A stretch of DNA of 36,367 bases from a virus (IMGVR_UViG_3300038334_000116:1-36367); one strand, 5' to 3'; positions 12,769 to 28,138 are shown, counted from the first letter of the stretch. The notes: generated from the sequence alone by a model not told the origin. Numbers and translations: made by a program.

Positions 12769-12945
12769 ATGAAGGGATCAATATTTGGATTACTAGCCGG
12801 ACTTATGGGAAACACCATTTACAAACCCTCTTCAGTCTTGAACATTTCTTCCGGCAGACCCGCCTCCAGAGGCGGCCGCAAAACTTTTAAGATGAACCGC
12901 CGCAAAGAGTTGGCACTTAGTGCCCGGCGCAAGGCAAAAAGATGA
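12769..12945 (+). CDS. small highly basic protein (58 aa, below ORF-track cutoff)
   Basis: ATG 3 nt after TerL stop, AGGGG RBS; 15 K/R versus 1 acidic residue. Confidence 0.5.
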   Translation: MKGSIFGLLAGLMGNTIYKPSSVLNISSGRPASRGGRKTFKMNRRKELALSARRKAKR

Positions 12946-13118
12946 TTAAAATGCAAATCGGCAAAAATGCCCCAGGATCGATTTAGGGACTTGGGACGCC
13001 CCAATGGCCGGTAATTCCCTTGACAATGTTTATAAACATGTCAACGGGGCTAGAAAGGGCAAATTTAGAAGGGGTCTGGACTCGAAAATCCGGAACCGAG
13101 GCGTTGGAAAGATAAAAT

Positions 13119-14702
13119 ATGGCAAATGACATTAAAAAACCCATAGCGGCAACCGATGAAATCGCCACCCTTGAAAAGGACATCGACATCTTTGCCGGAT
13201 GGCTAAAGCGCCTCGAAAATCCTGATTCTGTATTGCGCAGTGAAGCGGCAGGCCGTGGGCTGAAATTATATGATGAAGTCGAGCGCGACGCCCATGCCGG
13301 TAGCGTCCTGCAGCAGCGCATCATGGCCATTGTCGGTAAGGAATGGGAAATATTGCCCGCCAAGTCCGCCCGCAAACTGGGCCGACCCGCCGCAACTACG
13401 CAGGAGCAAGTTGTCGCCGATTTCGTTTCGCAGACATTGATGGATTGTAATTTCGACCAGGCCAGGCAGGAACTCCTCAAAGCCGTTCTGTATGGCCATC
13501 ATGAAGCGGAAGTCATCTGGTCTGCCGACACATTCAAAAAAACAGACGGTGGAATAACGATCAAAAAAATAATGGGTAAGCACCCGCGCCGCTTCATATT
13601 TACCGCTGAAAGAGAACTGCGCCTGCTGACCCGGCAGAACATGATCGAAGGTGAAGAGCTGCCGGAACGCAAATTTATCACCTTCACCTATGGCGATTCC
13701 GATAATCCCTACGGCAAAGGTCTGGGCCAGCGTTTGTGGTGGCCTGTATGGTTCAAAAAGCACGGCATTAAATTCTGGATGATCTTCCTGGAGAAATTCG
13801 GCATGCCCACCGTAGTCGGGAAATATCCTTCCGGAACATTGTCGGATAAACAAAAAGAACTGATGAACGCTATCGAAGCCATCCAGACGGACACCGGTAT
13901 CAAAATCCCCGACAATATGGATATTGAATTCCTGGAGGCCTCACGAGCCGGTAGTGTCAGCCACGAACAGCTATGCGAATACATGGATAAGCAGATATCC
14001 AAAGCCGTGCTTGGGCAAACAGCTTCCACTGAGGGCACACCCGGTAAACTTGGCAACGATCAAAACCAGGCCGATGTGCGGCAGGAAATCACCGAGGCGG
14101 ACGCAGATCTGCTCGATGGTTGCCTCAACGACACCCTGATTCAATGGATAGTTGATTACAATTTCTCTGGTGTTACGGCGTATCCGAAGATCAAGACCTA
14201 CGCCAATGCCAATCCCGACCTCACCGCGCGCGTTGCTATTGATAAAACTCTGGTTGTCGATATCGGCCTGCCGGTCGCTGAAGATTATTTCTATGAAACT
14301 TATGGCATCCCTGCGCCGCAGGAAGGAGAGAAAGTTGTAAATGTGCCTATTCGCGTAGGGAAGCTTCGCGAAGCACCCCTACAGCCGCAATTTGCCGAGG
14401 GCGCTGTGTTCCAGGATGCCGCCGATATCATTGCCAACGAGACCGCGCAAAAAGCGATGCATATTACTGATTCCGTCTTCATGGCCCCAATCAGGCGCTT
14501 GGTGGATAAATCAAACAGCCTGGAGGATCTCCGTGACAGCCTCATCGATTTGTATTCCGAAATGAAACCGGATGAGTTGGGTGTAATCATCGCCCGTGCC
14601 ATGATGCTGGCGGACATGTCGGGTAGATATGAAGCTTCGGCAAGCTCAGCTACCATAAAGGGCGATGCCCTGAGCGTGTCGAAAGGTAAAAAAAAAGCCT
14701 GA
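13119..14702 (+). CDS. portal protein (Mu gp29 / DUF935)
   Basis: NPYGKGL, FLEKFGMPTVVGKYP, ISKAVLGQT motifs. Confidence 0.93.
   Translation: MANDIKKPIAATDEIATLEKDIDIFAGWLKRLENPDSVLRSEAAGRGLKLYDEVERDAHAGSVLQQRIMAIVGKEWEILPAKSARKLGRPAATTQEQVVADFVSQTLMDCNFDQARQELLKAVLYGHHEAEVIWSADTFKKTDGGITIKKIMGKHPRRFIFTAERELRLLTRQNMIEGEELPERKFITFTYGDSDNPYGKGLGQRLWWPVWFKKHGIKFWMIFLEKFGMPTVVGKYPSGTLSDKQKELMNAIEAIQTDTGIKIPDNMDIEFLEASRAGSVSHEQLCEYMDKQISKAVLGQTASTEGTPGKLGNDQNQADVRQEITEADADLLDGCLNDTLIQWIVDYNFSGVTAYPKIKTYANANPDLTARVAIDKTLVVDIGLPVAEDYFYETYGIPAPQEGEKVVNVPIRVGKLREAPLQPQFAEGAVFQDAADIIANETAQKAMHITDSVFMAPIRRLVDKSNSLEDLRDSLIDLYSEMKPDELGVIIARAMMLADMSGRYEASASSATIKGDALSVSKGKKKA
14355..14382. repeat. GTAG-type REP-like palindrome inside the portal CDS
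   Basis: GTAGGG-AA-GCTTC-GC-GAAGC-AC-CCCTAC. Confidence 0.55.
14635..14686. repeat. CTTCG..GCTCAG / CTGAGC..CGAA REP-like inverted pair inside the portal CDS
   Basis: CTTCGGCAAGCTCAG (14635-14649) complementary to CTGAGCGTGTCGAAAG (14670-14685). Confidence 0.55.
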
Positions 14703-15517
14703 AATTTAGCACTGTCATTCCCTGGCTTGACCAGGGAATCCATGCATTCGCCGAAGGCGAGGTAGAACCTGAGCTTTTAACAGTTTTTAAACTGCCCTTT
14801 ACCGAGCAGAATACGTTCTTTCAAAACAAGCTGAATATTCCGACCCGCAAGTGGGACGATATCTGGAAAGCTCAGCATGCCAAAGGTTTCATGGTAGCAG
14901 GCGCCAACAAAGCCGATCTCCTAGCTGATTTCCGCACCGCGGTGGAAAAGGCGATCACAAAAGGAACCACCCTGGCCGATTTTCAAAAAGACTTTGACCG
15001 CATCGTAGCCACCCACGGCTGGAGTTACAACGGTTCGCGGAACTGGCGCAGCGAGCTCATTTACTCCACCAACGTTCGGACGTCCTATGCCGCCGGGCGC
15101 TGGGCTCAGCTCACTGATCCGGAGCAATTACAGGTTCTGCCGTATTTGACCTACAAGCACGGCGACAGCAAGGTGCCAAGACCGGAGCATTTAGCCTGGG
15201 ACGGGCTGACGCTCTCGGCAGATGATCCCTGGTGGCAGACCCATTACCCGCCCAATGGCTGGGGCTGCAAATGCCGCGTTTTCGGATCGACGCGCAGCGA
15301 GTATGCAAAGGCTCAGGAACAGGGACTCGGTGAAGCGCCGCCCTCGCCCAGGAACCCGAAAACCGGCGAACCGGTAGGGATCGACAAAGGCTGGGGCTAC
15401 AATGTTGGAGAAGCGGCTGCCACGCAAACGCACAAGATTTTAGCAGATGTATTTGCAAGATTGCCGGTGGATATCGCCGCTAAATTGCAGGAAGAAATGG
15501 AAGGATTTAATGTTTGA
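14690..15517 (+). CDS. head morphogenesis protein gpF (Mu gp30), probably reached by -1 recoding from the portal
   Basis: frame open from 14690; LPFTEQNTFFQNKLNIPTRKWDDIW..H precedes first ATG (14891); RPEHLAW, DDPWW..HYPPNGWGCKC motifs. Confidence 0.85.
   Translation, partial: KKSLKFSTVIPWLDQGIHAFAEGEVEPELLTVFKLPFTEQNTFFQNKLNIPTRKWDDIWKAQHAKGFMVAGANKADLLADFRTAVEKAITKGTTLADFQKDFDRIVATHGWSYNGSRNWRSELIYSTNVRTSYAAGRWAQLTDPEQLQVLPYLTYKHGDSKVPRPEHLAWDGLTLSADDPWWQTHYPPNGWGCKCRVFGSTRSEYAKAQEQGLGEAPPSPRNPKTGEPVGIDKGWGYNVGEAAATQTHKILADVFARLPVDIAAKLQEEMEGFNV
14713..14742. repeat. TGTCATTCC..GGAATCCA palindromic repeat, copy 2
   Basis: perfect 9-bp stem ATTCCCTGG/CCAGGGAAT. Confidence 0.65.
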
Positions 15518-16021: not shown

Positions 16022-17230
16022 ATGCCCGAATTTAAAGGGTTTGATGACTGGATACCCATTTTCCAGGGCGGCAAACAAAAAGACAGCAAGGGAATAGAGC
16101 ACGACGGCAACGCACTTATTGACAAGGCAATCTCTCAGTTCAATGCAGCCGTTCATGAGCCACCCGCCTGCATCGGCCATCCTGACCTAAACGCTCCGGC
16201 TTATGGCTGGGTCGAGGGGCTGAAAAAACAGGGCAATCTTTTACTGGCCAAATTTAAACAGGTCCAGCCGGAGTTCGCCCAGATGGTGCAGCAAGGTCTT
16301 TTTAAGAAGCGCAGTGCCGCCTTTTACCCGGACGGAACACTGCGGCATGTCGGCTTCCTGGGAGCTATGCCACCGGCTGTTAAGGGATTGCCTGATGTGG
16401 TTTTTGCCGAGAGCGAAGCAACCAGCTTCGAGTTTTCCGACTCGTTCACCTGGAATTCTCTGTCCGATATTTTTCGTCGGATCAGGGAATATTTTATCGA
16501 GAAAGAAGGTCAGGAGACAGCAGACCGGATCATTCCGGACTGGAAAATTGACGATTTGAGATCGGCAGCCAACCCGCCGGCCGATGCAATTCAACAAACC
16601 AACTATACGGAAAAGGAGGATAAGGAAATGAAATTTAAAGAGCAACTGGCCGCATTCTGGAAAGAATTTATGGCCAAGATACCCGACGACGGCCCGGCGG
16701 CACAACCCGGGCAGACCGTTTCGGGACAATTTAGCGAGGCCGATATTGAAAAAGCCAAAGCAGAGGCTGCAATCGCCGAACGGGAGAAAGTAACCGCAGA
16801 GTTTGCGGAAAAGGCCAACGCTTCGCGCCTGTCCGCTCTCAGGGGCGAGATCGACGCTTTTTGCGAGCAAATGGTCAAAGCTGGCAAAATAACACCGGCT
16901 ACGGTTAAATTCGGCCTGCCGGAGATGCTTTTTGCCTTCGCCGAAAGGATGGACACTATCGAATTCGGCGAAACAAAAGAAAAGGCAACACTTTATGACC
17001 GCTTCAAGGCGCTGATTGAGTCCGCCCAGCCGTTGATTAAGTTCGGTGAAATCGCCTCACGGGCGAAAGACGCGGGCGGAACCGGCACGGCAGGCGAAAA
17101 GCTCGACCAGCTTACAAAGGGTAAAATGAAGAAGAACAACTCCCTGACATACAGCGCCGCTTTTGCTGAAGTGCAGAAGGAGAATGCTGATTTGGCCAAG
17201 GAATACTTAGCCGAGTTCCAGGGCGATTAA
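16022..17230 (+). CDS. prohead protease/scaffold (Mu I-like)
   Basis: IGHP...APAYGWV, KKRSAAFY, LRHVGFLGAMPPAVKGL; helical C-terminal half. Confidence 0.88.
   Translation: MPEFKGFDDWIPIFQGGKQKDSKGIEHDGNALIDKAISQFNAAVHEPPACIGHPDLNAPAYGWVEGLKKQGNLLLAKFKQVQPEFAQMVQQGLFKKRSAAFYPDGTLRHVGFLGAMPPAVKGLPDVVFAESEATSFEFSDSFTWNSLSDIFRRIREYFIEKEGQETADRIIPDWKIDDLRSAANPPADAIQQTNYTEKEDKEMKFKEQLAAFWKEFMAKIPDDGPAAQPGQTVSGQFSEADIEKAKAEAAIAEREKVTAEFAEKANASRLSALRGEIDAFCEQMVKAGKITPATVKFGLPEMLFAFAERMDTIEFGETKEKATLYDRFKALIESAQPLIKFGEIASRAKDAGGTGTAGEKLDQLTKGKMKKNNSLTYSAAFAEVQKENADLAKEYLAEFQGD
16628..17230 (+). CDS. nested scaffold protein (Mu Z-like), internal in-frame start
   Basis: AAGGAGGATAAGGAAATG strong RBS and in-frame ATG at 16628. 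Confidence 0.6.
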   Translation: MKFKEQLAAFWKEFMAKIPDDGPAAQPGQTVSGQFSEADIEKAKAEAAIAEREKVTAEFAEKANASRLSALRGEIDAFCEQMVKAGKITPATVKFGLPEMLFAFAERMDTIEFGETKEKATLYDRFKALIESAQPLIKFGEIASRAKDAGGTGTAGEKLDQLTKGKMKKNNSLTYSAAFAEVQKENADLAKEYLAEFQGD

Positions 17231-19860: not shown

Positions 19861-20709
19861 ATGAAAAAAGTATCAATTTTAGCGGCATTAATTCTGGCGG
19901 TGTTTCTGTCGGTGGCGCCGCCAGTAATGGGGGCGGATAAGGCCATTAGCGGCTTGACCGAGGCGACATCTATTGCCGACGCCGATCTGCTGATGATCAG
20001 TTATTATTCCGGAGGATCGTTCTACAGCCGGAAGATTACCTTTGCCAACTTCAAAAACTCGTTTGCGGGCGAGGATGGTACCCATTACGCCAATATCTAC
20101 AATACCACGGCGCACAGGATATCCCCGAATAAGGGCGACCAGGACATTATGGGAGCGACGCCACATGGATACTTCTATGACGGGTCCACTTGGCAGCAGT
20201 TCTGCGATACGTCCAGCGTATGCAGCGGATACCAGGCAAGCCTTACTAAGGCCACCTATGGTGATATGAACACCGGATCGAATGATACCTTTTATTTGAC
20301 GCCAGCAGCCATAAGACAATCCTATGTAGCGAAGAAGCATATTTACTGGACGGTATTTGATAGTGATACTGATACCGCAACAGGGGATGGCAAGAAAGGG
20401 TATGCTATCCCTGCGAGCATGAACGGGATGAACCTTGCGGACTTTACATGCTCAGTTTACAATCTGAATAGCGCATCCGGAGGAACAACAACGGTAGTGT
20501 TACGGCGCTCAAGAGCCGGGACTGATCAGAATATGACTAGCACCGGCGTGACGATCAGTTATAACGAATACACCGCGTCAGATGAAACAATAAACACTAG
20601 TTATGATGACGTAGCAACCGGTGATTTAATATTCGTAGATGTTGATGCAGTTACCACCGGGGCTGTTCAAAAAGGCCTATCATGCACAGCAACGTTCACG
20701 CTTCCATAG
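19861..20709 (+). CDS. signal-peptide-bearing fibre-like protein
   Basis: MKK + hydrophobic core + VMG/A cleavage site; then ADKAISGLTEAT...RKITFANF. Confidence 0.7.
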   Translation: MKKVSILAALILAVFLSVAPPVMGADKAISGLTEATSIADADLLMISYYSGGSFYSRKITFANFKNSFAGEDGTHYANIYNTTAHRISPNKGDQDIMGATPHGYFYDGSTWQQFCDTSSVCSGYQASLTKATYGDMNTGSNDTFYLTPAAIRQSYVAKKHIYWTVFDSDTDTATGDGKKGYAIPASMNGMNLADFTCSVYNLNSASGGTTTVVLRRSRAGTDQNMTSTGVTISYNEYTASDETINTSYDDVATGDLIFVDVDAVTTGAVQKGLSCTATFTLP

Positions 20710-20716
20710 GGACTAT

Positions 20717-22174
20717 ATGAAGAAGATAATCATTGCAATAGCTTTTATCTTGTTGATGGCGTCAAACTCAGGCGCATGGGTGTTTTATGAAACATCAGCT
20801 ACGACGTATCTGACGAATTCTGAAAACGAAACGGCCTTGAATGACTTATGTACGGCCAATTCAACGTGGGAATGCAAGACAGGAGCGAATAAGATAGGGA
20901 CATCTTATGGAAGCAAGAACATTAACGCGGTGATAGTCAATCCGACAGGGTATTATGAAACATTCCTGATGGACGCTGGAACGCACGGATATGAAATCTC
21001 CGGGCAGAAAGCGGCACTTGACTTCCTGAATTACCTATCCGCGAACCCGTCGCTTTACACAAAGATAAGATGGATTGTGGTGCCTAAGATTAATCCTGAC
21101 GCTTCTGATGGGCAAAAGATATGGAATAATCACGGCGTTAACATTAACCGGAATTTTTCAGCAGGGTGGGGAGAAATACCATCAAACGGGGTATATACAG
21201 CGGGAAGCGCAACGCCGGGTACGAGCACCTATATGGGTGCATCTGCTGGAAGCGAACCGGAAACGCAAGTCATGATGGGATTGCTCAGCACTTATCTGCC
21301 TGAACGTCATCTCAATCAACACTCAAATATGAATTCCATTGGAGTGATGCCGAATGTTTCTAACTGGATATTTACGACAGTCAATGCATTATATTCAGCA
21401 AACGGCCTTTCGCAAATATTGCATTATTATGAGTGTACTGCCTTCGGGACGTACTATGATTATTCTTACGCGTTCGGGACGATTGAACCATATATTTGGG
21501 AAGATAACGGGTTTATATACAGCAATAGTCAAGCGAAACAGCAAGAGCAAACTGATAAGTGGATTGGCTTCATAAAGGCGTGGGTAGATAAAAGGAGATA
21601 TTATAATTCTGGAGCAATACGCGTTACAGCTTCGTCAGCGACCAATATAGGGGACACTACATATTCAGCCGGGGTATTATCTTCTATCGGCCTCACGCAG
21701 ACCGCCGGGAGTCAGAACCTAGAAATAACTGGGTATAAAGGTGCGTTTGCCGGGGCAACAAGTACGGTGATTGATTACGCCGCCTCAACATCTACGGTAT
21801 CTTTACGGCAAGGTCCCGACAAAGTGATCGGGGTTCCGATGGAAATAAACGCAACTTCGGGCTCCCTTACCATAGCGGTGATTGATTGGGGGGATAGAAA
21901 AAAATGGTCTGAATCTAGTTCTTCGGCTCCTTCAAATCCGGTACACATAATAAGTGGCTTTACGGCGGGACAGGCGTACAAGGTCAGCGTTTCCGGAGCA
22001 GAGCAATCCACAATCACAGGGGCGGGGTGTTCAATCAGCAACGGGTATAATTACTGTACCGCTGATGCTGACGGTAAAATAACATTCACATATGCCGGGT
22101 CATATTCATCCCATGACTTTCAAATAGGCGACGCGCCGATGGCGAAGGCAAGTTTCGTCGGGACAATGCAATAA
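20717..22174 (+). CDS. secreted M14-family zinc carboxypeptidase with beta-rich C-terminal domains
   Basis: signal peptide MKKIIIAIAFILLMASNSGA; HGYE (HxxE), PKINPD, NINRNF, SEPETQ, LNQHS. Confidence 0.8.
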   Translation: MKKIIIAIAFILLMASNSGAWVFYETSATTYLTNSENETALNDLCTANSTWECKTGANKIGTSYGSKNINAVIVNPTGYYETFLMDAGTHGYEISGQKAALDFLNYLSANPSLYTKIRWIVVPKINPDASDGQKIWNNHGVNINRNFSAGWGEIPSNGVYTAGSATPGTSTYMGASAGSEPETQVMMGLLSTYLPERHLNQHSNMNSIGVMPNVSNWIFTTVNALYSANGLSQILHYYECTAFGTYYDYSYAFGTIEPYIWEDNGFIYSNSQAKQQEQTDKWIGFIKAWVDKRRYYNSGAIRVTASSATNIGDTTYSAGVLSSIGLTQTAGSQNLEITGYKGAFAGATSTVIDYAASTSTVSLRQGPDKVIGVPMEINATSGSLTIAVIDWGDRKKWSESSSSAPSNPVHIISGFTAGQAYKVSVSGAEQSTITGAGCSISNGYNYCTADADGKITFTYAGSYSSHDFQIGDAPMAKASFVGTMQ

Positions 22175-27650: not shown

Positions 27651-27702
27651 CTGGGGACATGTACTTGTCTTGCCACCCACATGGGTGGTTACGTGTCCCC
27701 AG
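27651..27702 (+). repeat. CTGGGGACATGTAC..TACGTGTCCCCAG hairpin repeat, copy 3 with nested hairpin
   Basis: 21-nt loop insertion containing CCACCCA-CA-TGGGTGG. Confidence 0.85.
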
Positions 27703-27730
27703 ACAGAAAAAAACAGGAGGAGGATACACC

Positions 27731-28138
27731 ATGACACCGATTGATTTAGCTACATTGGATACCGTGAAAGGCTCTAACGAGGGCTTTGATGTTCAGATCT
27801 ACAACCCGGCCACCAATGAAGACCTTGATATAAAGATTCATGTACTCGGAAAGGATTCCGACGAATTCCAAAAAGTCAGCCGCGCCCAGAACAAAAAGAG
27901 AATGCAGAAGATTACGAAAGGCGGTTTCCGATCCGCTTCTATACCCACCGAGGAGATAGAGCAAGACAGCATTGCCCTGCTCGCCGCCTGCACGAAGTCA
28001 TGGTCAGGTGTGGTTATTAATGGCGTGCCGATCGAATGTACTCCGGAAAATGCGGTCATGGTTTACGAGAGGTTCCCCTGGATCAGGGAGCAGGTGGACA
28101 CAGCGATCGGTGACCGGGCAAATTTTATCAGATCCTGA
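27731..28138 (+). CDS. tail assembly chaperone (G-like)
   Basis: GGAGGAGG RBS; GKDSDEF, PWIREQVD..IGDRANF. Confidence 0.8.
   Translation: MTPIDLATLDTVKGSNEGFDVQIYNPATNEDLDIKIHVLGKDSDEFQKVSRAQNKKRMQKITKGGFRSASIPTEEIEQDSIALLAACTKSWSGVVINGVPIECTPENAVMVYERFPWIREQVDTAIGDRANFIRS

Follow-up and report, generated by a model that had tools for sequence, protein, structure and literature searches.

In bacteriophage SPP1, the portal protein gp6 brings gp7, a member of the MuF family, into the prohead in one to two copies, and gp7 aids infection (PMC5576092; PMC6316719), and in Microbacterium phages of subclusters EA3, EA5 and EA8 and of cluster EB the portal and MuF proteins are one polypeptide (PMC7302621). 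Here we examine the junction between the portal gene and the MuF-family gene gpF in a viral DNA of 36,367 nt (IMGVR_UViG_3300038334_000116:1-36367, herein referred to as the window), where a run of nine A's (A9) near the end of the portal frame is real and conserved and is very probably a programmed recoding site, and where, judging from sequence comparison, a recoded portal-gpF fusion is highly likely to be made, whichever route the slip takes. Neither precedent matches this arrangement in full: SPP1 gp7 is a separate product that binds the portal non-covalently, unlike the fusion predicted for the window, and the Microbacterium fusions are single open reading frames (ORFs) with 1:1 stoichiometry, whereas in the window the two parts are out of frame and the portal stops at 14700-14702.

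Minority frameshift fusions that set stoichiometry, as proposed here, are described for retroviral Gag-Pol, lambda G/GT, SPP1 17.1*, PSA and the capsid extensions of T3 and T7, and in Gag-Pol the fusion packages its cargo before protease cleavage, again as proposed here; in the available portions of the sources, however, those frameshifts are ribosomal and lie in capsid, tail or chaperone genes, unlike the portal site of the window. Transcriptional slippage has been shown in RNA for the cellular genes dnaX (tau/gamma) of Thermus thermophilus and mxiE, spa33 and mxiA of Shigella (PMC5009743; PMC3711429), whereas the window presents a phage head gene pair at which we infer slippage from conservation alone. 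Among the structural genes of phages, tail chaperones and capsid or tail extensions are established cases of recoding, and we found no paper on a portal-MuF junction. In the literature searched, which was mostly open access and in which the supplementary cluster tables of PMC3711429 and PMC4066793 may include genes of this kind, portal-MuF recoding was unreported: it is absent from the available portions of PMC5576092, PMC3711429, PMC10299305, PMC4066793, PMC7302621, PMC6316719, PMC7911831, PMC4363877, PMC10052503, PMC11445458, PMC8601537, PMC5009743 and PMC6260861, and the word "portal" is absent from the examined part of the recoding review PMC5009743.

The original prediction, which was made from this DNA alone, stated that such a fusion was not known for Mu-like head genes. 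This holds for the papers searched but not for sequence records, as the GenBank record of phage RcapMu (NC_016165/JN190960) describes the portal as short, mentions a frameshift as a possible means of read-through and remarks on the absence of a good ribosome-binding site for MuF. As in the window, the Mu-like portal of RcapMu ends after an A run and MuF lies in the -1 frame; unlike the window, where A9 follows the C-terminal helical domain of the portal, RcapMu carries A8 ahead of that domain. The annotation is an untested remark on one genome that calls the shift +1 and names no site or mechanism. The site described here is a variant of known recoding that was foreshadowed by one database note.

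The A run and its conservation at portal-gpF junctions

The window is a Mu-like prophage within a 200-kb host contig, with genes for Mu transposase, MuB, terminase, portal, gpF, gpG, protease and major capsid; portal, gpF, gpG and protease stand in this order which, together with the Mu transposase and MuB, identifies a Mu-like head module. The portal ends with Gly, three AAA codons, Ala and TGA, and the gpF frame, which shares 13 nt with it, has its earliest ATG, GTG or TTG at 14891 (codon 68), such that 67 codons are open before any such start and the match to the PHROG 220 (gpF) profile already begins at codon 25. The positions of the run, of the upstream TAA, of the frame open to 15517 and of the late first start all agree with the original prediction, as does the confinement of the frame overlap to the surroundings of the run. 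Residues 49-508 of the portal align with residues 63-510 of the 512-residue solved Mu portal chain (PDB 9khx), and because this alignment extends only to residue 508 of 527, the run sits in a tail of ~19 residues that reaches past the portal fold. An A_AAA_AAA heptamer lies in phase at 14690-14696. A9 is the sole A or T run of at least nine in the window, and the host assembly holds 76 such runs in 3.99 Mb. Counts of A/T runs in that assembly (G000) are 531 at length 8, 73 at 9, 2 at 10 and 1 at 11, longer runs being sharply avoided.

To place this junction among its relatives, 341 loci were gathered: 80 by portal (the best 80 of 176), 240 by gpF (three sets, the best 80 of 296, 192 and 116 confirmed relatives) and 21 by the A-run pattern. 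With the window included, 300 of 342 sequences held a usable portal-gpF pair (42 were dropped), giving 183 distinct junctions at 95% identity, among them 8 in-frame fusions, 9 that were left out (gpF >300 nt from the portal stop) and 166 others. An A9 or A10 run occupies the frame overlap at 25 of these 166 (slip junctions), always with gpF in the -1 frame, and a re-scan added two further run-bearing junctions, L284 and L295, whose portals are 38-40% identical. The run is present at all 14 junctions at which gpF has no start and at 12 of the 151 at which it has one (Fisher p 1e-13, an overstated value as the loci are kin; L329, known only from the A-run pattern search, was taken out of this table). 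The gpF cores of the 25 slip junctions are 70-91% identical in DNA, and in a 68-row gpF tree (root not inferred) the run-bearing loci are scattered across the clade, and gpFs with a start of their own are nested among them. A search of 60 relatives of the host returned only one distant gpF.

The sequence of the run is constrained well beyond the amino acids that it encodes. Its three codons are AAA at 24/24 same-phase loci, at which the neighbouring codons take 5-12 forms; AAA accounts for 38% of Lys codons in these portals and 36% in the gpFs, and not one of 25 conserved Lys columns is all AAA. The codon ahead of the run is GGT at 19 of 24 loci and ends in T at 21 of them. A length of 9-10 is kept in three different codon phases, A7 occurs at no start-less junction, and the tally of A runs across 129 kb of these loci is 16 A7, 2 A8, 24 A9 and 2 A10. 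Past the run, variation in the -1 linker falls mostly at third positions of the gpF frame (0.16/0.10/0.30; 15 loci); the open gpF frame in the linker (stops in 0/15) was not counted as evidence, being open partly by construction. These comparisons indicate that the A run is under selection as a DNA or RNA sequence. As in dnaX-type slippage, a homopolymer of about nine A or T is kept beyond coding need (with one exception, A8 in RcapMu) and the alternative frame gives a conserved, meaningful product.

The same arrangement appears in named phages. A search with the -1 frame of L284 covered 19 of 400 records over >80%, and the six distinct phages at the top were examined. RcWaterboi, RR1-B and the uncultured record EBPR siphovirus 4 have A9 just before the portal stop (at 1696-1704 in L346, 1701-1709 in L345 and 1681-1689 in L347, respectively), gpF at -1 and the tripeptide F-A-E after the run; RcapMu has the same with A8 (1697-1704 in L344); and in two Stenotrophomonas phages the genes are separate and in frame and the run is absent. 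In all four run-bearing records gpF is annotated from late GTG or TTG codons, and in this group the slip precedes the helical tail domain of the portal. In the small gene that directly precedes the portal, the RcapMu record carries a further mark, a "potential -1 frameshift" (L344 position 274). A conserved slippery run in related phages, which the original prediction had offered as a check on itself, is found at 27 distinct junctions and in four named phage records, and comparison with relatives strongly supports the recoded fusion that it proposed.

In-frame portal-gpF fusions add a second context for the run. A9 is retained in five of the eight distinct fusions, at a domain boundary, and slipping there either way would lead to a stop a few codons on at most; as four of the five form one clade, these amount to about two independent cases. 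This pattern suggests that the same device can also act on a fused gene and yield a plain portal.

A predicted cut site and the cargo of the proposed fusion

We hypothesize that the host RNA polymerase slips on A9 and adds one A to some transcripts, such that slipped transcripts would encode a single portal-gpF protein of ~799 residues and the rest plain portal, the fusion presumably being the minority product. Fusion subunits would co-assemble into the 12-subunit portal ring and, as the crown end of a portal faces the capsid interior, a few copies of gpF would enter the prohead with them. There, cleavage by the prohead protease at F-A-E, just past the junction, would free gpF, a logic resembling that of Gag-Pol.

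The cut site is predicted from the distribution of the motif F[AGS]E, which follows the run in 25/25 slip linkers and in 4/4 named phage records with the run, as against 0/34 N-termini of separately started gpFs. It also lies 70-135 residues ahead of the run in 22 of 23 slip-locus portals, and in 13 of the 15 relatives with a protease stretch; it occurs neither in 8,064 residues of portal bodies nor in 5,050 residues of gpF cores, and in the fusion L027 it stands at the portal-gpF boundary. Because F[AGS]E marks the slip linker, the portal tail and the protease, we predict that it is a maturation cut site of the prohead protease. The Mu portal is cleaved C-terminally by the Mu protease; our search of the literature on Mu portal cleavage found nothing usable. 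Cleavage after AXE, including that of the portal, has been shown in SPN3US, a phage unrelated to that of the window (PMC10052503), and the available portion of the work on JBD30 mentions only scaffold cleavage (PMC11445458). A predicted protease site after the run makes it doubtful that gpF stays tethered at the portal, as the original prediction had supposed. The junction peptide that it put forward for mass spectrometry lies entirely in the -1 frame and does not span the junction.

The window gpF ends ~40 residues past its core with no second domain and is hence not a MuF polymorphic toxin, in which a C-terminal toxin domain is borne on MuF (PMC5576092). Among 24 tails of slip relatives, at the Pfam cut-off, three carry a PBECR2 nuclease domain and five a DRAT-like ADP-ribosyltransferase domain, and three more match PBECR weakly; the loci with DRAT-like or PBECR2 tails behind the slip site are L022, L025, L127, L173 and L185, and L042, L133 and L329. 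PBECR2 is also found on L284, L295 and L027. Tentatively, and with less than even confidence, we propose that Mu-like phages dose head cargo in the manner of Gag-Pol, a poly-A slip setting the fraction of portal that bears gpF and an adjacent protease site freeing it. The device would work in both directions, with the fusion as slip product or with the fusion by default and plain portal as slip product, and would fix the copies of gpF or effector per virion. If correct, this would account for the arrival of a fixed number of copies of a low-copy head protein at the portal vertex and would offer a way of keeping MuF proteins with effectors scarce, and it would mean that annotations start gpF too late in such genomes (in the window, by 67 codons). 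Cultured phages of Rhodobacter capsulatus and Rhizobium radiobacter carry the site, which makes the fusion, and the choice between polymerase and ribosome, directly testable.

Polymerase, ribosome or a separate start

We lean modestly towards polymerase slippage as the route. A run length of 9-10 kept in three phases favours it, whereas a ribosomal heptamer would need only seven A's, and so do the lack of A7 at start-less junctions, the lack of a detected 3' structure and the two Lys tRNAs of the host, whose assembly encodes both, including tRNA-Lys(CUU). In Thermus dnaX, the presence of both Lys tRNAs is the condition linked with slippage by the polymerase and not by the ribosome, and slippage is reported to be efficient in vivo on nine A or T (PMC5009743); in E. 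coli, unrelated cassettes of nine and seven A's gave 40% and 10%, respectively (PMC3711429). The absence of AAG from the run had been considered as a sign of the polymerase route, but the host proved to have tRNA-Lys(CUU) and the argument was dropped.

The same fusion could instead be the work of the ribosome, shifting to -1 or sliding on A_AAA_AAA with possible help from adjacent Shine-Dalgarno (SD)-like sequence and from the stop one codon downstream, an explanation that we consider rather unlikely, if the most serious of the alternatives. The heptamer is in phase at every locus, including the A8 of RcapMu, all out-of-frame cases examined are -1 and none +1, SD-like sequence is enriched just 5' of the run, the missing AAG at the last codon would be expected in a host with tRNA-Lys(CUU), and the tail chaperone of the phage has a -1 site of the heptamer type. 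However, an explanation by heptamer is at odds with the lack of A7 at start-less junctions and with a first AAA codon fixed in 24/24 loci. A 3' hairpin or pseudoknot is common but not obligatory at bacterial -1 sites, and SD-like -1 stimulators sit ~9-14 nt upstream; here the SD-like stretch abuts the run, apparently nearer than that spacing, and a conserved 3' hairpin after the heptamer was not found (median z -0.45 over 29 loci, with pseudoknots outside the model), the downstream consensus of 18 loci reaching -1.05 kcal/mol with 0 compensatory pairs. Ribosomes slid little in vitro on A9 or A10 (PMC4363877).

In the tail region, an A_AAT_TTT heptamer at 28120-28126 is in phase near the end of an ORF at 27659-28138, and the -1 frame is open to 28479; the site stands just before the tape measure gene and is a typical G/GT tail-chaperone frameshift.

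The hairpins flanking the run were considered as possible stimulators. The 9-bp hairpin does begin 20 nt past the run, as first reported; the upstream inverted pair ends 2 nt before the run only if a bulged pair is allowed, its gapless form ending 4 nt before. Neither is conserved in relatives (upstream, median fold z -0.02 over 29 loci), and both were rejected as stimulators on that ground. The downstream hairpin belongs to a palindromic insertion unique to the window locus, a gap standing in its place in all 23 other rows of an alignment of 24 loci, and one partial copy (27/30 nt) lies elsewhere in the host assembly. In L010, a different palindromic in-frame insertion occupies the same linker, between A9 (4071) and the gpF core (4154). 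These insertions suggest that the portal-gpF linker tolerates repetitive extragenic palindromic (REP)-like elements.

Several observations weigh against a polymerase-made fusion, or against the fusion as a whole. E. coli RNA polymerase slipped only weakly on poly-A of up to 8 in one reporter study (PMC6260861), an in-phase A_AAA_AAA lies inside every A9 and the two routes yield an identical protein, and the RcapMu run is only A8, with the heptamer retained. SD-like pairing in the 14 nt adjoining the run has a median of -6.9 kcal/mol against a background of -3.1 (-3.5 at the window locus), energies computed with a standard anti-SD as the host assembly yielded no 16S 3' tail; this suggests that the stretch is a ribosome-level element. 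ATG, GTG or TTG occurs in the linker of 10/25 slip junctions, with ATG at the position of the window's CTG in L182, and because many close relatives start gpF at an ATG of its own, the fusion is not required. As for the cut site, the F-A-E motif was chosen after inspecting the window, and an exact linker match is present in only 1/4 fused A9 loci of the clade. Finally, support for the fusion comes from DNA contigs and comparison.

That gpF is a separate product, started at the CTG overlapping the portal stop in a weakened form of ATGA coupling, with the A run as an A-rich ribosome-binding spacer, is improbable. CTG lies exactly where ATGA-coupled starts lie, SD-like sequence is found upstream and the codon pattern of the linker fits such a start too; across the 25 slip junctions, however, the codon at this position is CTG in 13, CTA or TTA in 3, CCN in 8 and ATG in 1 (L182), such that 11 retain the run with a non-start codon there. 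The linker of L016 is entirely free of start and near-cognate codons, and L022, L127 and L329 lack both that CTG and any ATG, GTG or TTG. The run is also missing from 139 of the 151 junctions with a normal start, and the motif resembling a cut site follows the run only where a fusion is predicted. A CTG start, which the original prediction had named as one of two ways in which it could fail, was accordingly rejected as a general explanation, CTG not being conserved.

Replication slippage, a form of phase variation in which phage genomes would alternate heritably between A9, without gpF, and A10, with a constitutive fusion, is less probable still: poly-A runs are mutable (PMC3711429) and in-frame fused forms with the run exist, but run length and frame are constant within near-identical groups (62 slip and 13 fused loci, many of them the same contig), the fused forms have A9 in another phase rather than A10 and four of them form one clade, and gpF is intact behind the run in all 25 slip junctions. 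Homopolymers are error-prone and in-frame portal-gpF fusions exist, but an assembly error (the other failure that the original prediction had foreseen, as A10) or a recent inactivating mutation in a fused gene can be dismissed, as nine A's stand without a gap in the contigs of 4/4 sequencing runs (one study; contigs rather than raw reads; two runs may be the source of the window DNA and the other two span A9 in separate pieces, 14587-15010 and 14543-15120) and the same offset recurs at 27 distinct junctions (the 25 and the two distant ones) and in four named phage records, a recurrence that refutes such an error.

Feature coordinates and neighbouring sequence

Table 1. Features at and around the portal-gpF junction of the window, in order of position.
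Feature	Position	Strand	Match or score
Mu-type portal (gp29/gpH family), 527 aa	13119..14702	+	PF06074 E 1e-102; PHROG 113
F-A-E, portal residues 425-427, between body and C-terminal helical domain; predicted cut site	14391..14399	+	
Upstream inverted pair 14636-14649/14670-14683, not conserved	14636..14683	+	
TAA in -1 frame, 5' bound of gpF frame	14687..14689	+	
A9 run, three AAA codons in portal frame; putative slip site	14688..14696	+	
gpF/MuF frame, -1 to portal, 275 codons	14690..15517	+	PF04233 E 1e-17; PHROG 220
CTG overlapping portal stop, possible weak start, not conserved	14699..14701	+	
14-codon in-frame palindromic (REP-like) insertion with 9-bp hairpin 14717-14725/14731-14739	14705..14746	+	fold z -3.9
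F-A-E in post-slip linker, predicted prohead-protease cut site	14747..14755	+	
Head maturation protease/scaffold, seven F[AGS]E motifs from residue 128 on	16022..17230	+	PHROG 976 E 1e-88

Between 12700 and 16100, the + strand showed no site resembling a promoter or a terminator. AlphaFold modelled the -1 frame poorly (mean predicted local distance difference test score 57; residues 1-41 below 50), and neither this model nor a Foldseek search, which gave no match at E <=0.001, was used; a scan of NCBIfam gave only a gp7 match, below the cut-off.

Eleven loci (L008, L011, L013, L017, L021, L029, L031, L032, L049, L077 and L080) have portal ORFs of ~700 residues with a different fused tail. Four were scanned: L077 passes Phage_Mu_F, two others give weak matches to Phage_min_cap2 and the fourth matches nothing. 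F[AGS]E stands near residue 411-440 in 9 of the 11.

Within the window, a 30-nt stretch upstream of the portal (13019-13048) recurs on short unrelated contigs in three runs. A basic ORF of 58 residues with no PHROG match lies between terminase and portal (12769-12945), and a zinc-carboxypeptidase-like ORF is located among the virion genes (20639-22174).

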